From Bacilli bacterium (GTDB taxonomy: Bacteria; Bacillota_I; Bacilli_A; RF39; UBA660), in the NCBI GenBank assembly GCA_017428485.1, contig JAFRQT010000011.1, positions 7,301 to 71,300 on the forward strand: 64,000 bases of DNA, in the 5' to 3' direction. Under the pieces are notes generated by a model that was not told where the DNA came from, ran no database searches, and worked only from the letters and a program-made list of their open reading frames with translations. The position numbers were made by a program, and so were the translations under genes. Below, in pieces: positions 33,365 to 41,461 of the stretch. Each line of letters starts with the position of its first letter. The stretch's first letter is position 1.

Positions 33365-35854
33365 ATGGGCTTATTTAAAAACTTATTTGATTATGAAACA
33401 AAAGAATTAAAAAGAATAAATAAATTAGTAGATCAAATTGAAGCTTTAGATGAAGAAATGCAAAAAATTAAAGATACTGAATTTAAAGCTAAAACTGAAG
33501 AATTTAAAAAAAGACTTCAAAATGGTGAAACATTAGATGATATATTAATTGAAGCTTTCGCTTTAGCAAGAGAAGCATGTTATAGAGCTTTAGGAGAAAA
33601 ACCTTTTAGAGTTCAATTGATAGGTGGAGTAGCAATTCATAGAGGTAATATTGCTGAAATGAAAACTGGTGAAGGAAAAACATTAACAACAGTACTTCCC
33701 GCTTATTTAAATGCTCTTGAAGGTAAAGGTGTTCATGTTATAACAACTAATGAATATTTATCAACTCGTAATGCTGAATGGATGGGTCCTATCTATGACT
33801 TACTTGGTGTAACAGTCGGAATAAATATTAGAGAAAAATCTCCACGTGAAAAGCAAGAAGCATATAATGCAGATATTACATATACAACTAATAATGAACT
33901 TGGATTTGATTATCTAAGAGATAATATGGTTGTTCACAGAGAAAATAGAACACAAAGAGGTCTTAATTTTGCTATTATAGATGAAGTTGATTCAATTTTA
34001 ATAGATGAAGCTAGAACTCCGTTAATTATATCTGGTGGTGTCGCTAAAACAGCTAATGTATACAAAGAAGCAGATAGAGTAGCAAAAGCATTAAAAATAG
34101 ATGATTATGTTTTAGATGAAAAAACTAAAAAAGTTACTCTTACTGAAGAGGGAGTTCATAATGCAGAAAAACTTCTTCACCTAGACAACTTATTTGATAT
34201 TAAAAATAGTGTAATGGTACATAATTTAGATAAAGCACTTGCTGCTAATTACGCATTTAAAAAAGATGTAGATTATGTAGTCGAAAATGATAAAGTTATT
34301 ATAGTAGACACATTTACTGGAAGACTTATGCATGGACGTCAATTTAGTGAAGGACTTCATCAAGCATTAGAAGCAAAAGAAAATGTTACTATTAATGAAG
34401 AAACTAAAACTTTAGCAACTATTACATTCCAAAATTTATTTAGAATGTATAATAAACTTTCTGGTATGACCGGTACTGCTAAAACAGAAGAAGAAGAATT
34501 TCAAAATATATATAATACATATGTTGTGTGTATACCAACAAATAAACCAGTTATTCGTGATGATCAAGTTGACTTAATATATTCCTCATTAAATGGTAAG
34601 TTTAGAGCGGTAGTTAATGTAGTAAAAGAAATACACTCAACTGGTAGGCCGGTATTAGTAGGTGTTGCATCTGTAGAAACAAGTGAGCTTGTAAGTCAAT
34701 TGTTAAATAAAGCTGGTATTAAGCATGAATTATTAAATGCTAAAAACCATGAGCGTGAAGCTCATATTATTGAAGGCGCTGGTAAAAAAGGTGCAGTTAC
34801 AATTGCAACAAATATGGCTGGTCGTGGAACTGATATTAAACTGGGAGAAGGGGTCCGTGAGTTAGGTGGATTATTTGTAATAGGTACTGAAAGACATGAT
34901 TCAAGACGTATAGATAATCAACTTCGTGGTAGAGCTGGTCGTCAAGGTGATCCAGGAACGACAAGATTCTTTGTATCTATGGAAGATGACTTGATGATGA
35001 AGTTTGGTTCTGAAAGAATGAAAGCAGTAATGACTAACTTAGGAATCAAAGAAGACCAAGCAATATCAAATAAATTCATTTCTAATAGTATTGAATCTGC
35101 TCAAAAGAAAGTTGAAGGTTTTAACTTCGATAGAAGAAAAGCATTACTTGATTATGATAATGTTATTTCTAAACAAAGAGAAATAATATATGAAAGACGT
35201 AATGAAATATTAGATCAAGAAAGTATTAGAGATAGAGTACTTGAAACATTCAGAGAATTTGTTAATAATCAAATAACATCACATTTAACTGAAAACACAT
35301 TAACAGATAATGATATTAACAATATAATGGAACAATTTAATTCACACCTATTGAAAAGAAAGAAATTAAAGAAAGATGATTTTAAAAACAAATCAAATGA
35401 AGAAATATGTGATTATATTTATAATATTGTTATAGATGATTATAAAAAGAAATTAGAAGATATACCGCAAGAAATACAAAATGATTTTGAAAAATCAATT
35501 TCACTTCGTATAATCGATAAATATTGGATGGATCAATTGGATGCTATGGAAGAATTAAAAGAAGGTGTAGGACTAAGGGGTTATGCACAAAGTAATCCAC
35601 TTCAAGTTTATGCTTTAGAAGGATTCCAAATGTTTGATAATATGTTAGCTTCAATATCTGCAGAAATATCTTCATTCTTACTAAATGCTGAAGTAAGACA
35701 AAATACTGAAAGAGAAGAAGTTAAAAATATCAGAACTAATGATGGAAAAGAAGGCGTAAAGGCAAAACCTAAAAAGTCTGAAAAGAAAATAGGCAGAAAT
35801 GATCCTTGCCCATGTGGGTCAGGTAAGAAATACAAACAATGCCACGGAAAATAA
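33365..35854 (+). CDS. secA: preprotein translocase subunit SecA
   Basis: MKTGEGKT, DEVDSILIDEARTPLIISG, GMTGTA, NQLRGRAGRQGD, SEC-C GRNDPCPCGSGKKYKQCHG. Confidence 0.99.
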   Translation: MGLFKNLFDYETKELKRINKLVDQIEALDEEMQKIKDTEFKAKTEEFKKRLQNGETLDDILIEAFALAREACYRALGEKPFRVQLIGGVAIHRGNIAEMKTGEGKTLTTVLPAYLNALEGKGVHVITTNEYLSTRNAEWMGPIYDLLGVTVGINIREKSPREKQEAYNADITYTTNNELGFDYLRDNMVVHRENRTQRGLNFAIIDEVDSILIDEARTPLIISGGVAKTANVYKEADRVAKALKIDDYVLDEKTKKVTLTEEGVHNAEKLLHLDNLFDIKNSVMVHNLDKALAANYAFKKDVDYVVENDKVIIVDTFTGRLMHGRQFSEGLHQALEAKENVTINEETKTLATITFQNLFRMYNKLSGMTGTAKTEEEEFQNIYNTYVVCIPTNKPVIRDDQVDLIYSSLNGKFRAVVNVVKEIHSTGRPVLVGVASVETSELVSQLLNKAGIKHELLNAKNHEREAHIIEGAGKKGAVTIATNMAGRGTDIKLGEGVRELGGLFVIGTERHDSRRIDNQLRGRAGRQGDPGTTRFFVSMEDDLMMKFGSERMKAVMTNLGIKEDQAISNKFISNSIESAQKKVEGFNFDRRKALLDYDNVISKQREIIYERRNEILDQESIRDRVLETFREFVNNQITSHLTENTLTDNDINNIMEQFNSHLLKRKKLKKDDFKNKSNEEICDYIYNIVIDDYKKKLEDIPQEIQNDFEKSISLRIIDKYWMDQLDAMEELKEGVGLRGYAQSNPLQVYALEGFQMFDNMLASISAEISSFLLNAEVRQNTEREEVKNIRTNDGKEGVKAKPKKSEKKIGRNDPCPCGSGKKYKQCHGK

Positions 35855-35891
35855 GAAAAATCAAGTAATTCTAAATTAGAAAATTAATAAA

Positions 35892-35932
35892 TTGTCATCC
35901 ATTTGTCATCCTAAACAAAAAACGGATGACAA
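35892..35932. repeat. arm-type repeat cluster TTGTCATCC x2 plus inverted copy
   Basis: ttgtcatcc at 35892 and 35903; ggatgacaa at 35924. Confidence 0.75.
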
Positions 35933-35956
35933 AATGTATACTGGAGGAGTAATAAT

Positions 35957-36583
35957 ATGATAAATGAAAAATTAAAGAGATACATTGAAGATAACATTTT
36001 GCCTCTTTATGATAATAACTTTATTGGTGATGGAAGAGATAGGGTATATTATGTTATAAATCGCAGCTATCAAATAATAGAAGAAAATAATTTAGATATA
36101 GATTGGAATATTTTATATACTGCAATAAGTTATCATGATATAAGAACAAATAATGAAGAAAAAGATCATGAATTAATTAGTGCTGAGATAATGTACAATG
36201 ATGATTTTTTAAAAGTTTTTTTTAGCGAAGAAGATAGATTAATAATAAAAGAAGCTATTGAAGATCAAAGAGCAAAATTAGGGAATGAGCCAAGAAATAT
36301 TTATGGTAAAATTCTATCTTCTGCGTCTAGAAATTCTTCAGTGGAGCAATGTTTAGAAAGATCTTATAATTATGGAAAAAAGAAAAATCCTAATGCAACG
36401 GATGAAGAAATATTCGAAGGTGCTTATAATGCTCTATTAGGCAAATTCGGGAAGGATGGAAAAGCCAATTTCTTTTTCAGAGATACCACTTATGAACAGT
36501 TTTTACATGATATAAGAGAATTATTATCTGATAAAGATAAATTTATAGAAAAACAAAGAAAATATATTTTAAAAATGAAATAA
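35957..36583 (+). CDS. degenerate HD-domain protein (paralogue of the next gene)
   Basis: Aligns with the N-half of 36597; keeps YHDI but has GDGRDR, EDQRA and SASRN in place of GHNLDH, HDHRA and SADRN. Confidence 0.7.
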   Translation: MINEKLKRYIEDNILPLYDNNFIGDGRDRVYYVINRSYQIIEENNLDIDWNILYTAISYHDIRTNNEEKDHELISAEIMYNDDFLKVFFSEEDRLIIKEAIEDQRAKLGNEPRNIYGKILSSASRNSSVEQCLERSYNYGKKKNPNATDEEIFEGAYNALLGKFGKDGKANFFFRDTTYEQFLHDIRELLSDKDKFIEKQRKYILKMK

Positions 36584-36596
36584 GAGGTAGAATAAT

Positions 36597-37718
36597 ATGC
36601 AAATAAATAAAAAACTACAGGAATATATTGAAAATAATATATTTCCTAGCTATGAGAAGAATGATTTGGGTCATAATTTAGATCATATCAAATATGTAAT
36701 TGAAAGAAGTTTTAAATTCATAAAAGAAAATAATTTAGATGTAGATTACAACATGGTTTATGTGATAGCTGCTTATCATGATATAGGTCATTATATTGAT
36801 GCCAAAAATCACGAAAAAGTTTCAGCAATTATGTTATTAGCAGATGATAATTTAAAGCAGTTTTTCAATGAGGAACAAATAAGGATTATGGCTGAAGCAG
36901 TTCATGATCATAGAGCAAGTCTGGCAAAAAAAGGAAAAAGGCCAAGAAGTATTTATGGTGAAATTGTATCTTCTGCAGATAGAAATACATTAATTGAAGT
37001 TCCTCTTAAAAGAACATATGCTTACAGAATGGAACACAGCCCAGGTGCTACTCTTGATGAAATAATAGAAGAATCAAGACAGCATATAATTGACAAATTT
37101 GGTAAAGTAGGATATGCAACAGATGCAATGTATTTTGAAGACTTAGATTATAAAAAGTTTTTAGAGGATATTCCAGCACTTGTAGAAAATAAAGAAGAAT
37201 TTAGAAGAAGATTCATTGAAGTAAATAATATCTCTCTTGATAAAAAACCAGAAAGAGAAAAGTTTTTATCATCAATTTATTTAATAATTAAAAATGAAAA
37301 TGGAGAAGTTTTACTTCAAAGAAGACAAGGAACAAAATTATGGCCTGGTTATCTTGCTTTGCCAGCTGGACATATAGATCAAGGTGAAAATGCATATGAG
37401 GCAGCTATAAGAGAAGCAAGAGAAGAATTAGGAATAGAAATAGCTACTAATGATATTGTGAATACTTTTGTTGCTAATAGAAAAAATAAATCATTACCTC
37501 CATATTATGATGTATATTTTGAAATATCAAAGTATGTAGGAAAAATTAAAATAGCTGAACCAGAAAAGTGTTCTGAATTAGTATGGTGTAGTCCAATTAA
37601 TCTACCTGATGATATGATAGACTTTGAAAAAGAAGCAATGGAAAATAATGCTAATGGTATAAAATTTAGTGTTACTTATGCTGACAATGAAAAGAAGTTA
37701 GTAAAAACTAAAAAATAG
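36597..37718 (+). CDS. HD-domain + Nudix hydrolase fusion
   Basis: GHNLDH, YHDIG, HDHRAS, SADR; Nudix box GHIDQGENAYEAAIREAREELG. Confidence 0.85.
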   Translation: MQINKKLQEYIENNIFPSYEKNDLGHNLDHIKYVIERSFKFIKENNLDVDYNMVYVIAAYHDIGHYIDAKNHEKVSAIMLLADDNLKQFFNEEQIRIMAEAVHDHRASLAKKGKRPRSIYGEIVSSADRNTLIEVPLKRTYAYRMEHSPGATLDEIIEESRQHIIDKFGKVGYATDAMYFEDLDYKKFLEDIPALVENKEEFRRRFIEVNNISLDKKPEREKFLSSIYLIIKNENGEVLLQRRQGTKLWPGYLALPAGHIDQGENAYEAAIREAREELGIEIATNDIVNTFVANRKNKSLPPYYDVYFEISKYVGKIKIAEPEKCSELVWCSPINLPDDMIDFEKEAMENNANGIKFSVTYADNEKKLVKTKK

Positions 37719-37751
37719 ATTATTTAGAAAAATATACAAGTAGGTGATATT

Positions 37752-38071
37752 TTGAATAAGCAAATAGGTGATGAACACAATATAATTTTTTATACAGATG
37801 AAGATAATAATATTAAAGTTGAAGTATTGCTTGAAAATGAAGATGTATGGTTAACCCAAAATGCTTTAGCAAAATTATTTGATACAACGCGAAATAATAT
37901 TACACTTCATATTGGAAATATATATAAAGAAGAAGAACTTGAAGAAAAATTAACTAGTAAGGATTCCTTACTAGTTCAAATTGAAGGTAATAGAAGTGTT
38001 AAAAGAAATGTAAAAATATACAATCTTGATATGATAATTTCTATGAAATAGATAAATTAGAAAAAGAATAA
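37752..38071 (+). pseudogene. RhuM-family gene with an internal deletion
   Basis: VWLTQ..LA.LF...NIT.HI.NIY...YNLDMIIS then breaks; out-of-frame EIDKLEKE-stop follows. Confidence 0.7.
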
Positions 38072-38074
38072 AAA

Positions 38075-38106
38075 TAAAATAATCGTCATATTAAGATATT
38101 ACGATG
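38075..38106 (+). repeat. post-stop-codon motif, copy 1
   Basis: taaaataatcgtcatattaagatattacgatg. Confidence 0.65.
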
Positions 38107-38248
38107 TGCGGAATGTTTCATCTTTCAAGAACATTCAAAAGGTAGAAAAATTAATTTTCTATCTTTTTTTATTTGTCAGTAAAAAAATGTAAAAAAGTGT
38201 GTTATAATAAAATTGTTAATAAACTATATTAATGTGAGGAGAAATTTT

Positions 38249-38653
38249 ATGAAAAGGATAATATTGTGTTTAGTAATAATTATAGGAGTATTAGCTATAA
38301 CTGGTTGTGGTAATAAAGCAACAGAAAATGAATCAAATAAAAGTATAATTATCTCAGATGTAGATAAAGGTACAAGATGGGAAGCTATAACAAACTATGA
38401 TATAACATTAGAATTTAAAGATGGCAAATGTGTTTCAGAAAACTTTAGATTAAAATTTTTGAAGGAAAGTAATGCGATTGTTTATGGTATGGAAATGGAA
38501 GGTCAATCTTATATAGAGGATTATAAACAAGAAGGAAATATTGTTACTTATAAGCGTACTGGAATAAATAATGAATTTTATGATAGAACAATTGATGAAG
38601 CATATGATATTGCAAAAAAATTGTATTCAAGTGCAACGATAACAAAAAAATAA
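38249..38653 (+). CDS. lipoprotein of unknown function
   Basis: MKRIIL...lipobox ITGC. Confidence 0.8.
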   Translation: MKRIILCLVIIIGVLAITGCGNKATENESNKSIIISDVDKGTRWEAITNYDITLEFKDGKCVSENFRLKFLKESNAIVYGMEMEGQSYIEDYKQEGNIVTYKRTGINNEFYDRTIDEAYDIAKKLYSSATITKK

Positions 38654-38683
38654 AAGTAATCGCACTATTAAGATATTCTGATT
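38651..38683 (+). repeat. post-stop-codon motif, copy 2
   Basis: taaaagtaatcgcactattaagatattctgatt. Confidence 0.6.
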
Positions 38684-38971
38684 AATGAGAGGATAGAAAT
38701 ATTCTCTTTTTCTTTACTTTTCTTGTTTTATAGTATAATTTACTTAGTTATGAAAGAAAGAACACCTTTTATAACCTAGAAAAATCGTTGTTTAAAAATT
38801 AAAACGAATGCAAACAATGTTTGTAATTAGTTTGTAAACTGTAAAATATTGATAGTAACATAAATACTATAAATAACATATATACTAAATGTTACTTGAC
38901 CCACAAACACTTGAAATAACAATAATAACACAAATACTATATGTACCATATATACTAAAAGTGTATGAGCA

Positions 38972-39013
38972 TGTGGCAGTGGACGCAAGTATAAAATGTG
39001 CCACGGTAAATAA
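38972..39013 (+). repeat. secA 3'-end copy 2 (CGSGRKYKMCHGK-stop), putative att junction
   Basis: tgtggcagtggacgcaagtataaaatgtgccacggtaaataa, followed by a GC-rich hairpin. Confidence 0.85.
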
Positions 39014-39095
39014 GCCTGCAAGCCCGCATAAAATAAAGGGCTGCGGGCTTTTTACTACTTACATTTTTTAGGTAATTTCACCTTAAAAAAGGCGT

Positions 39096-39115
39096 TTAGA
39101 TAAGTTTTAGATAAG
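39096..39115 (+). repeat. arm-type direct repeat TTAGATAAG x2
   Basis: Copies at 39096 and 39107; the same pair recurs at 40060/40072. Confidence 0.8.
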
Positions 39116-39234
39116 TTTTTTTTGTGATTTGGAGTATTTTTAAAACTCTAAAAACAAATTATATTCCAAACTGTTGCTGGCATTAGAATAATAAGAGCTG
39201 TGGTATAATTAATATGAAGTGGGAGGTACTATAT

Positions 39235-40011
39235 ATGAAATATAATGATTTATTAAATTCACATTTAAAGTATGGAACAACATCGGACGATATCATTAAA
39301 AGAAAAGGTTATGAAAAAATATTAGAAAATGTTGTTATTGCACCATGGTGGAGTCATGATATATTTGACGGATTAAATTTTGAAGTAGATCAAGTAAATG
39401 ATAAAGTGTTTAACTTTTACAGCGATGATTTATCCTTTTCATATATAGAATTAAAAAGAATAGGAGCGCCTGGAATAATGGATTTTATACTATCCTTAGG
39501 AGTTACAAAATGTAAAAATGTAATTTTTTTAGGATCAGCAGGTTCATTAGATGAAAGTATTAAAATAGGTGAAATAGTTATTCCAAAATACTCTATATGT
39601 GGTGATGGGGCATCCAGATATTTAAATATAAATCTTGAAGATGAATTTTTAAAAAAAGAATATCCCTCAAAAATATTTACAAATGATTTAATTGATATCT
39701 TAAAAGAAAGCAATATAAAATATCACTATGTTCCTAATTATAGCATTGATACTGTATTTGCACAGTTTTATCACATTGATAAGATTTTAGATTTAGGGGC
39801 TAAAACTATCGAAATGGAAACTGCCTGTTTATTTAAATGTTGTAATTTAATGAATATAAATGCAACAGCATTATTCTGTATATCTGATAATAATATATTA
39901 AATAAATCTCTATATAGCGGAAGAACCGATGAAGAAAATGATTATAGACATAAAATTAGATATGAATTAATCCCAAAAATAGTTATTGATTTATTTAAGA
40001 AAAGTAACTAA
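39235..40011 (+). CDS. purine/uridine nucleoside phosphorylase family protein
   Basis: IGAP, IFLGSAGSL, GDGASRY, IEMETA, CISDN. Confidence 0.85.
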   Translation: MKYNDLLNSHLKYGTTSDDIIKRKGYEKILENVVIAPWWSHDIFDGLNFEVDQVNDKVFNFYSDDLSFSYIELKRIGAPGIMDFILSLGVTKCKNVIFLGSAGSLDESIKIGEIVIPKYSICGDGASRYLNINLEDEFLKKEYPSKIFTNDLIDILKESNIKYHYVPNYSIDTVFAQFYHIDKILDLGAKTIEMETACLFKCCNLMNINATALFCISDNNILNKSLYSGRTDEENDYRHKIRYELIPKIVIDLFKKSN

Positions 40012-40059
40012 AATGTCTTGTAATATTTTTTTGTTTATCAATATAATTAATTAACTCTT

Positions 40060-40080
40060 TTAGATAAGTTATTAGATAAG
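40060..40080 (+). repeat. arm-type direct repeat TTAGATAAG x2
   Basis: Copies at 40060 and 40072. Confidence 0.8.
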
Positions 40081-40185
40081 TTGTATGAAAAAAACTTACA
40101 ATTATCAGACAAAAAATTATAAGTTTTAAATAAAAAACACCAATTTAAAAGGAAAAAATTACCTGGTTGTTTTAAATTATTACTA

Positions 40186-40227
40186 TGTGGCAGTGGTAAA
40201 AAATATGAGCAATGTTGTGGCAAATAA
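40186..40227 (+). repeat. secA 3'-end copy 3 (CGSGKKYEQCCGK-stop), putative att junction
   Basis: tgtggcagtggtaaaaaatatgagcaatgttgtggcaaataa, followed by gcaaaccctgataaaataagggg. Confidence 0.85.
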
Positions 40228-40397
40228 CTCGCAAACCCTGATAAAATAAGGGGAAAAACGAGTTTTTCTTTTTAGCAAAAAAACCAAAATTGGCTTTAGA
40301 ACCATTTTATACATAAAATTGAATCATAAAATAGTAATATTGCGATGTAATTAAAATATAGAAAAGTTTGATATAATTGATTATAGGAAGTGATAAA

Positions 40398-40691
40398 ATG
40401 GCTACTACAAAAGATTATAGAGATTTTATTTTAGAGCAACTAAATTTATTAGATAATATAACTTGTAAATCTATGATGGGAGAATATTTACTTTATTATA
40501 ATGGAGTATTATTTGGAGGCATTTATGATGATAGATTACTTGTTAAAATAGTTGATAGCAATAAGAAATACAATATGCAAGAATCTATTCCATATGAAAG
40601 TGCAAAACCTATGTATCTTGTAGGCGATGTAGATAATCCAGTAACATTAAAAGAAATAGTATTAGATACTTACAGAGATTTAAAGAAATAA
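40398..40691 (+). CDS. TfoX N-terminal domain protein
   Basis: KSMMGEYLLY..G..FGGIYDDRLLVK, PY..AKPM. Confidence 0.85.
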   Translation: MATTKDYRDFILEQLNLLDNITCKSMMGEYLLYYNGVLFGGIYDDRLLVKIVDSNKKYNMQESIPYESAKPMYLVGDVDNPVTLKEIVLDTYRDLKK

Positions 40692-40720
40692 AATAATCAT
40701 CATATTAAGAAAATAGGTGA
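40689..40720 (+). repeat. post-stop-codon motif, copy 3
   Basis: taaaataatcatcatattaaga, 21/22 identical to copy 1. Confidence 0.65.
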
Positions 40721-40831
40721 ATAAAAAATTTTCTTTTAATATGATAAAATATATAGAATATAACTCAACTATTGGTATGTGTATATTATGAGTATTTTAT
40801 TATATATTTGAATTGTGAAAGGAGAAAGTTC

Positions 40832-41461
40832 ATGGATTTAATTAAGATTGGGAAATTTATTGCTGATTGTAGGAAAAGGAAAAATATAACTCAAGAGGAG
40901 TTAGCAGAAAAATTATATATTACTGATCGAGCAGTATCAAAATGGGAAAGAGGATTATCATTACCTGATGCTGATAAGATGTTAGAGTTATGTAGTATAC
41001 TTGATATTAATGTTAATGAACTTTTAAATGGTGAAAAAATAAATATGAAAGATTATGAAAAGAAAACAAATGAATTATTGGTTGAGTTAGCTAAACAGGA
41101 AGAATTAAAGAATAAAAAGATGATAACAGACATGTATGTTTTAAGTGTTACAGCAGTAGTATTTTATATTGGAATAACATTACTTGCAGCATACACATTG
41201 GGAGAAGGAACTACATTTGGTATTATTGTTACTATTGCTACTATTATTTTAGTTGCTGTTGCTTTATATGTTTTTAAACTTGAAATTTATACTGGATATT
41301 ATGAATGTAAAAAATGCCATCATAGATATGTTCCAAATTCTTACTGGAAAGTAATGTTTTCTCCTCATATAGATACAACAAGATATTTAAAATGTCCTAA
41401 ATGTGGTAAAAGAAGTTGGTCTAAAAAAGTAATGAGTAAGACAGATAAAGTATTAAAATAG
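40832..41461 (+). CDS. XRE-family HTH regulator with TM segments and Zn ribbon
   Basis: IGKFI...TQEELAEKL..TDRAVSKWERG..PD; 2 TM; CKKC...CPKC. Confidence 0.85.
   Translation: MDLIKIGKFIADCRKRKNITQEELAEKLYITDRAVSKWERGLSLPDADKMLELCSILDINVNELLNGEKINMKDYEKKTNELLVELAKQEELKNKKMITDMYVLSVTAVVFYIGITLLAAYTLGEGTTFGIIVTIATIILVAVALYVFKLEIYTGYYECKKCHHRYVPNSYWKVMFSPHIDTTRYLKCPKCGKRSWSKKVMSKTDKVLK

Follow-up and report, generated by a model that had tools for sequence, protein, structure and literature searches.

How the 3' end of secA, the gene of an essential ATPase, came to stand twice more downstream of itself is the question raised by the DNA analysed here, a stretch of 64,000 nucleotides (nt), hereafter the window, from an uncultured gut bacterium (positions 7301-71300 of contig C6 in assembly G000, which comprises 1.36 Mb in 63 contigs at 26% G+C). 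We consider it very likely that the three copies are the cores of attachment sites that arose by serial site-specific integration into the secA 3' end. A degenerate 43-nt pattern, consisting of ATGTGG, the codons of the SEC-C tail and a stop, matched the window three times, always on the + strand (Table 1), and had no match in 100 shuffles. Tail 1 (CGSGKKYKQCHGK-stop) terminates an 840-codon open frame, that of secA, which closes with CPCGSGKKYKQCHGK-stop. Tails 2 (CGSGRKYKMCHGK-stop) and 3 (CGSGKKYEQCCGK-stop) are preceded by 1 and 21 open codons, respectively, with no start codon, and no open reading frame (ORF) stands behind either of them. In a six-frame scan of the entire assembly, these three tails and one extra orphan, on contig C59, were the only ones found. 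Sequence similarity of all copies begins exactly at ATGTGG, and Ser is encoded by TCA in copy 1 but by AGT in the other two. Hairpins follow tail 2 (-22.6 kcal/mol, z -3.9, with none of 200 shuffles folding as well) and tail 3 (-11.1 kcal/mol, z -2.1). No recombinase was found by a Pfam scan of 10 ORFs of the window, neither between nor near the tail copies, and a tblastn search with six integrases for an integrase or its remnant gave a best E value of 0.68 within 35800-41000 and nothing at E<=1e-3 window-wide. The original prediction, which was made from the letters of the window, had described the recurring secA end, the abrupt start of similarity, the synonymous Ser change, both hairpins and an array free of recombinase, and it was right in all details checked.

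An integrase with a catalytic and an arm-binding domain does lie beside the site in relatives and on contig C59, but not inside the window. All 31 relatives have an orthologue of secA (identity within the genus, 80-89%), and the DNA 3' of secA was compared for 16 of them. A tyrosine integrase gene begins ~200 nt past the secA stop in four genomes (G011, G003, G002 and G013) and is split in a fifth (G018); the Pfam domains of these integrases are Phage_integrase, Phage_int_SAM_3 and Arm-DNA-bind_4. Orphan tails were detected 3' of secA in G018, G012, G001 and G002, and also in G019, a member of another family. In G002, a 23.5-kb integrase-bearing element at secA has an orphan tail as its far end, and G032 shows the same arrangement with 10.6 kb. 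The closest relative, G004, with a secA 97% identical over the assembled part, carries a different, integrase-bearing element at the tail. Since the site is repeated and variable, contigs break there: in six genomes the contig ends no more than ~435 nt past the secA stop (G006, G008, G010, G014 and G017) or within secA (G004), and many tails lie within ~170 bases of contig ends. A run of Ns that interrupts a duplicated stretch of the secA 3' end ~60 nt 5' of the secA tail in L010 (G013) is probably a scaffolding gap at the repeated site.

In a wider survey, an alignment of five integrases yielded 80 loci from named genome records, the titles of which refer to uncultured Bacilli, Clostridia, Tenericutes, Mollicutes or Erysipelotrichaceae from guts. 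The loci were split by identity to the C59 integrase, with 29 below 52% and 51 at 52% or above. In the first group a tail lies 150-400 nt 5' of the integrase start in 26 of 29 loci, and 20 of those 26 tails end a long ORF; in the second, an orphan tail lies 150-400 nt 3' of the integrase stop in 12 loci, and a tail lies 5' in four. Two prophages of 35 and 40 kb from a viral collection have an integrase of a third, unrelated type (22-23% identical); both are situated between a secA tail and an orphan tail, with the integrase (376 aa in L118) read towards secA and TTAGATAC arms at either end. Integrases from the phage collection reached at most 33% identity, and the closest solved structure by sequence is that of Tn1549 Int (6EMZ/6EN0). 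The proposal that the secA 3' end serves as an attachment site is thus upheld by tails near integrases, upstream of the gene in one lineage and downstream in the other, and the integrase-bearing elements with SEC-C tails that had been suggested as a check exist in relatives, on C59 and in the two prophages.

To map the breakpoint, elements of one arm type were compared between hosts, with three hosts per junction. At the left junction, 35 of 70 columns were invariant upstream in secA, 42 of 42 in the tail and 63 of 68 downstream, and at the right junction the counts were 69 of 70 upstream, 28 of 42 in the tail and 10 of 68 downstream. TGTGG, the first five bases of the tail, is invariant in both sets. 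This pattern of invariant columns places the exchange junction at or next to TGTGG, and the comparison of the two junctions indicates that the present secA tail comes from the element and that the orphan is the displaced earlier tail, in agreement with the element-borne replacement tail postulated originally. Strain variation maps to the tails. Almost every tail is accompanied by a word of 9-11 bases that is repeated in tandem every 10-12 bases, ~57-62 or 79-91 nt 3' of the tail and ~121-157 nt 5' of it. The word varies between elements, with at least 12 types (for example TGTTTGTAA, TTGTCATCC, TTTGTCCAC, TTGTGTGCAA, TTGTTTGCA, TTTGACATC, TGTGCACAT, TTAGATAAG, TTAGATACC and TACATACG), and it is identical at both ends of the complete elements of G002 and G032. 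Based on this geometry and on the domain content of the integrases, we read the repeats as predicted arm-type sites for the arm-binding domain.

Applied to the window, these observations suggest the following mechanism. Strand exchange by tyrosine integrases with an arm-binding domain would take place at or beside TGTGG, the Cys-Gly codons with which the SEC-C zinc motif begins. With its own copy of the final 13 codons, a stop and a terminator, the incoming element would keep SecA whole, and the earlier tail would end up, untranslated, as an orphan at the element's far end. Tail 3 and its terminator would be the original secA end, because tail 3 together with 125 nt 3' of it matches, at 89% identity, both the native secA terminus of G008 and the distal tails in L064 and L034. 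The first arrival would have been a 1.2-kb cassette lacking an integrase, with TAGATAAG repeats at each end, and it would have brought tail 2, whose GGACGCAAG (Arg) variant reappears at the left ends of TTAGATAAG cassettes. At least one integrase-bearing element would then have entered at tail 2, bringing tail 1, and a later deletion would have removed the integrases and the tail between, to leave a 3.2-kb hybrid with TTGTCATCC as left arms and TGTTTGTAA as right arms. Tails 1 and 2 both carry the uncommon Cys-His variant TGCCACGG, whereas the other secA tails of the genus compared first are Cys-Cys, and because of this shared variant both are taken as putatively element-borne, tail 1 presumably with the last element to integrate. 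The same variant occurs at the start of contig C41 of G004, apparently the end of the G004 secA.

The fourth tail of the assembly lies on contig C59, which carries an intact 425-amino-acid (aa) integrase, followed by TGTCATCC arms and by the orphan tail, 96 bases from the contig end; the integrase on contig C40 is 62% identical to it and is cut by the contig end, so that related integrases are present on other contigs of the same assembly, a refinement of the original prediction. One end of C59 joins C34 by a 141-base overlap, and the other is a dead end. As the C59 arm word is the word that follows secA in the window, the C59 element, or a strain variant carrying it, may belong to the window array. 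The window itself may still be subject to movement today. As a separate observation, C34 (1-2550) and C19 (3510-6071) are 94% identical over 2.5 kb, which points to strain mixture or duplication in the assembly.

Table 1. Features of the secA region in the window, with positions counted from its first letter
Feature	Position	Strand	Basis or remark
secA	33365..35854	+	From the ATG of MGLFKN; start in ORF list is GTG 33308
Tail 1 (CGSGKKYKQCHGK-stop), current secA end, putative attL core	35812..35854	+	Cys-His variant
Arm-type repeats TTGTCATCC (predicted)	35892..35932	+	Direct copies at 35892 and 35903; inverted copy at 35924
Cargo of segment 1	35957..38653	+	ORF list, Pfam
HD-like paralogue	35957-36583	+	ORF and domain scan
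HD+NUDIX protein	36597-37718	+	ORF and domain scan
RhuM-like N-terminal fragment, 99 aa	37752-38051	+	ORF and domain scan
Putative lipoprotein	38243-38653	+	ORF and domain scan
attR-type P arm (predicted)	38802..38970	+	TGTTTGTAA/AGTTTGTAA tandem at 38818; AT-rich ATACTATA repeats 38844-38962
Tail 2 (CGSGRKYKMCHGK-stop), orphan, left end of TTAGATAAG cassette	38971..39013	+	Pattern match; six-frame scan
Terminator-like hairpin carried with tail 2	39014..39055	+	Folding energy as in the text
Tandem TAGATAAG left-arm repeats (predicted)	39097..39115	+	83 nt after tail 2
PNP_UDP_1 cargo gene (phosphorylase superfamily)	39235..40011	+	Pfam E 6.5e-21; likely start ATG 39235 (MKYNDLL); start in ORF list 39214
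Tandem TAGATAAG right-arm repeats (predicted)	40061..40080	+	125 nt before tail 3
Tail 3 (CGSGKKYEQCCGK-stop), putative displaced ancestral secA end	40185..40227	+	Pattern match; likeness to native secA end
Putative ancestral secA terminator region	40228..40275	+	Hairpin; likeness to native secA end

The 1.2-kb segment between tails 2 and 3 is, by its ends, an intact member of a widespread family of integrase-less cassettes with TTAGATAAG arms. Its left-arm geometry (+81 to +91) is common to G012, G035, G045, G050, G041 and the two prophages, and its right-arm geometry (-121 to -149) recurs in other cassettes and in the prophages. The TAGATAAG tandem pairs are the only such pairs in the assembly. 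The cassette ends recur at 80-87% identity, with different cargo, in at least eight other genomes of the genus, and homologues of the PNP_UDP_1 gene (72-78% identical) occur at other chromosomal sites, without tails or arms, in six relatives. A metagenome search with the TTAGATAAG left-end pattern matched more than 120 contigs, and 80 fetched loci hold 82 instances. Among the tails of this set, 21 end a long ORF, in which case the cassette-borne tail is the working end of that ORF (by position, presumably secA). The next tail lies 712-3219 nt away in 40 of the 82 instances; 32 of these 40 bounded cassettes have matching arms, and together they make up 26 cargo clusters between conserved ends. 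In 28 of 29 size-distinct cassettes, secA and the longest ORF share their direction. No intact cognate integrase was found in the 82 instances, five of which contain integrase fragments (73-105 aa) and one an IS91-like insertion. That cassette (TTAGATAAG-ended, L157 4292-7416) carries the IS91-like transposase and a companion tyrosine recombinase as cargo, and the two genes lie on the opposite strand. The two complete prophages bear related arms, TTAGATAC; that complete prophages also use the arm type of the cassette family is a further refinement of what was first proposed.

Two or more strict tails occur in 18 of 50 genomes of the genus (0 for a reversed control pattern). In G035, secA is followed by eight orphan tails over 18.5 kb; the arms match in five of the eight units, and a recombinase is encoded by none of the 16 ORFs. 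No close relative of the secA-site integrases was found in G035, G012, G031 or G040, and the other tyrosine recombinases of these four genomes, considered as partners of TTAGATA cassettes, have no tails or arms nearby. Turnover at the site is visible as well. G040 resembles G031 minus the first cassette, and the tail that is orphaned in G031 has changed from Cys to Ser at one codon and gained a stop. A 1056-nt cassette and the flank upstream of it are 98-100% identical in nine metagenome contigs from a single population, one of which continues into unrelated DNA past the right-hand tail. Short public contigs that align to the window, whose uncovered stretches and depth differences were not used, include joints exactly at the tails, namely the back-joints 38969>35811 and 40177>38970 and the skip 38995>40213. 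Several elements at secA tails carry second, divergent aminoacyl-tRNA synthetases (L014 342-2762 in G001, L006 3549-4787 in G018 and L105 833-2422 in G035). Among them are leucyl- and tyrosyl-tRNA synthetases, which share 47-50% identity with their housekeeping counterparts, and a class II enzyme. The only leucyl-tRNA synthetase match in G000 (on C2) is 78% identical to the copy of the element type, and none of the housekeeping type was seen in this assembly.

The 3.2-kb segment between secA and tail 2 has a different character. Its left TTGTCATCC motif pair is also found 154 nt 5' of the C59 orphan tail and after secA in L003, and its right end has the TGTTTGTAA/AGTTTGTAA tandem 154 nt 5' of tail 2, preceded by the lipoprotein ORF and followed by AT-rich repeats. 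The 170-nt arm before tail 2 is 68-76% identical to DNA just 3' of integrase genes in seven loci (L026, L030, L032, L033, L034, L037 and L047). Given the non-matching ends, and that neither an integrase nor a remnant is present, we read the segment as a probable deletion hybrid left from at least two elements after internal deletion. The truncated RhuM-like ORF, the only match in PADLOC and there a candidate-system match, fits such a deletion. The original idea of non-autonomous cassettes therefore holds for the 1.2-kb unit, which belongs to a large integrase-less family, and is refined for the 3.2-kb segment, a hybrid with non-matching arms and not one cassette. The former could be moved by an integrase supplied in trans, and the latter probably could not.

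Several further features of the region were noted. The stretches between TGA codons before tail 2 (window 38890-38970) and before the C59 tail (L017, which is C59, 97-180) would be rich in Asn, Thr and Ile if translated and are alike across several genomes. An alternative genetic code was considered since the five in-frame stops 5' of tail 2 and of the C59 tail are all TGA. It was dropped, as TGA ends 84 of 851 long ORFs, Trp in secA is encoded by TGG, and reading with code 4 yields no more than a 46-codon frame that lacks a start. With TGA as the normal stop, the stretches are probably non-coding, conserved arm DNA. In a search of the AT-rich repeats for known RNA families, Rfam gave one sub-threshold chance match, ylbH, which scored 22 bits (cut-off 50) and lies within a coding region. 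A consensus scan for promoters and terminators was uninformative (44 promoter-like sites against 36.5 expected), and the hairpin loops exceed the length that the scan covers. The two adjacent HD-like paralogues of the cargo show DNA similarity in register at a 643-nt offset, with the second fused to the NUDIX domain. A ~27-nt repeat (TAATCGTCATATTAAGATATT-like) stands right after the stops of three unrelated ORFs (38064-38105, 38641-38682 and 40678-40719), each time followed by a terminator-like hairpin; with nine loose matches in the assembly, including contigs C8, C54 and C58, it could be a motif of the 3' untranslated region or another recombination site. A second SecA paralogue on contig C45 (77452-79854) is 38% identical, matches only to query residue 788 and seems to have no SEC-C tail. 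In G000, prfB lies on contig C5 (46425-47501) and does not adjoin secA; it is found 1.6-10 kb 3' of secA in G024, G019 and G009, and ~26 kb 3' of it in G002, that is, 2.2 kb past the far end of the 23.5-kb element.

Other explanations for the copies have to be weighed against serial integration. SEC-C motifs also occur at the C-termini of proteins other than SecA, and copies 2 and 3, which both keep the motif at the protein level, might be decayed 3' ends of independent genes for such proteins. We give this reading next to no credence, and it is already contradicted: the assembly has no other SEC-C coding sequence, similarity begins at the same base in every copy, the same layout is found beside secA in many genomes, and the flanks upstream of the copies are arm regions common to integrase-bearing elements rather than decayed coding sequence. 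The homology of the tail-2 flank to the integrase-adjacent arm in the seven loci thus excludes the case that had been named as refuting the original prediction. Local duplication or gene conversion without site-specific recombination, or an artefact of assembling a mixed population, would be in keeping with a metagenome draft in which two contigs (C34 and C19) point to strain mixture and with the many relatives whose contigs break at the tail. Such an origin is very improbable, if somewhat less so than the decayed genes, since three copies of just 43 nt that diverge at many positions would not be collapsed or chained by an assembler, contigs from other public runs cover 39085-40400 without difference and also cover 35811-37768, and duplication does not explain element-specific arms and integrases at the same site in relatives. 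More serious is the proposal that the short TTAGATAAG-ended units, including 38971-40227 of the window, are a dedicated non-autonomous cassette family that is moved in trans, with the secA end as an integron-like platform, and not decayed remnants. The metagenome counts, the near-uniform orientation of the longest ORFs, the recurrence of the window's cassette ends with other cargo and of its cargo gene at other sites, the array of eight in G035, and a window cassette free of integrase fragments and phage gene remnants all speak for it. On the other hand, internal deletion of TTAGATAC-arm prophages would likewise leave end-to-end remnants with a gene from near attR, detection needed intact ends and so biased the set towards matched units, six of the 82 instances do carry integrase fragments or the IS91-like insertion, and an integrase that uses TTAGATAAG arms was not found in the metagenome instances, the viral contigs or five genomes. 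We regard this proposal as possible, though less probable than not; it refines serial integration without contradicting it. With the same reserve, the secA end may be pictured as a platform with the logic of an integron, where TTAGATAAG-type cassettes bring their own SEC-C tail and terminator, stack up to eight and are re-captured by integrases of phages or mobilizable elements, so that phages would gain accessory genes and the SecA zinc tail would be exchanged at each event.

Serial site-specific integration, the reading we prefer, has several observations weighing against it. The left-end pattern had no match in viral contigs, and no integrase with TTAGATAAG arms was found in any of the 82 metagenome instances, in the viral contigs or in the five cassette-bearing genomes, so that the partner of the intact cassette is hypothetical. 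In the integrase lineage at or above 52% identity, 35 of 51 loci have no tail within 400 nt, and this lineage is therefore not dedicated to secA. The joints at the tails stem from contigs of relatives that are only 87-95% identical, for which reason they are read as other module orders in relatives and not as circles, and a recombination product of this genome was not seen. The assembly is a draft, 93% complete, in which C59 and C40 have no placement, and the proposed order of insertion is drawn solely from the types of the arms.

Among known systems, the closest parallel is accretion by cis-mobilizable elements (CIMEs), which, in the account given by PMC5704250, arise when an element that has inserted at a gene's 3' end decays into a unit with attL and attR retained, newcomers then entering at an att site. 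The streptococcal ICESt1/ICESt3 system cited there resembles the window in that attL and attR are kept and integration genes lost, tandem units occupy the 3' end of a gene that is conserved, every att site holds a duplicated gene end, and new elements enter an existing att site (PMC5704250). Both window segments fit the definition of CIMEs, with att sites kept and the recombinase absent. They are flanked by direct tails, three in all, with arms that match in the 1.2-kb unit and mismatch in the 3.2-kb unit; the Pfam scan of ORFs and tblastn with six integrases found no integration or transfer genes inside; and autonomous relatives occupy the same att site (the integrase loci with tails, G002, G032 and the prophages). 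The window differs from that account (PMC5704250), which describes few decayed islands, in its target, secA, in at least 26 cargoes between conserved ends and in arrays of up to eight units. It also differs in that at least three integrase lineages share one five-base junction. The literature searched does not name secA as an integration target, and supplementary tables of surveys of streptococcal integrative and conjugative or mobilizable elements could list further targets.

The integrases of lambda and Tn916-Tn1549 share with those at secA a catalytic and an N-terminal arm-binding domain, arm repeats at fixed distances on both sides of the core and a restored target 3' end. At secA, arm sites lie at conserved distances on both sides of the tail and the comparative breakpoint falls in a short shared core, TGTGG; in contrast to the known systems, the arm sequences are highly variable between otherwise similar elements, and the arms are predicted from sequence. 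Integron arrays resemble the cassettes as short, mostly single-gene, co-oriented units without their own recombinase, bounded by recombination sites beside a fixed platform. However, no intI or other tyrosine recombinase gene was found in the window or in the G035 array (PF00589 matches in G035 are on other contigs, without tails), nor were an attI site or the imperfect, single-strand-folding palindromes of attC: the boundaries are direct repeats of a coding tail and tandem direct arm repeats, with a hairpin per unit, and Rfam returned nothing relevant. The window array is therefore not an integron. Elements that integrate at the 3' ends of tRNA and tmRNA genes carry the 3' part of the gene and keep it functional, displaced ends accumulate, and unrelated elements share one site. 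All three traits recur at secA, with the difference that the restored part is coding and comprises the zinc-binding motif of an essential ATPase, so that each event can change SecA, e.g., between Cys-Cys and Cys-His.

What is new with respect to the known picture of accretion is the target secA, the convergence of three integrase lineages and the numerous short integrase-less units with varied cargo. The locus is a conserved integration hot spot in poorly known uncultured gut bacteria with genomes of ~1.3 Mb, where integrases of at least three lineages, some of them from complete prophages, target the same five bases at the opening of the SecA zinc motif. The tail and the tandem arm repeats at fixed distances provide sequence marks by which mobile DNA can be delimited, at a site where many drafts break. 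The short cassettes, with a cargo that includes nucleotide house-cleaning enzymes and second copies of aminoacyl-tRNA synthetases, offer a tractable test case for distinguishing decay products from a cassette system in its own right. For the bacteria themselves, the comparisons indicate that mobile elements routinely replace the metal-binding C-terminus of an essential protein with their own copies, including changes from Cys-Cys to Cys-His.

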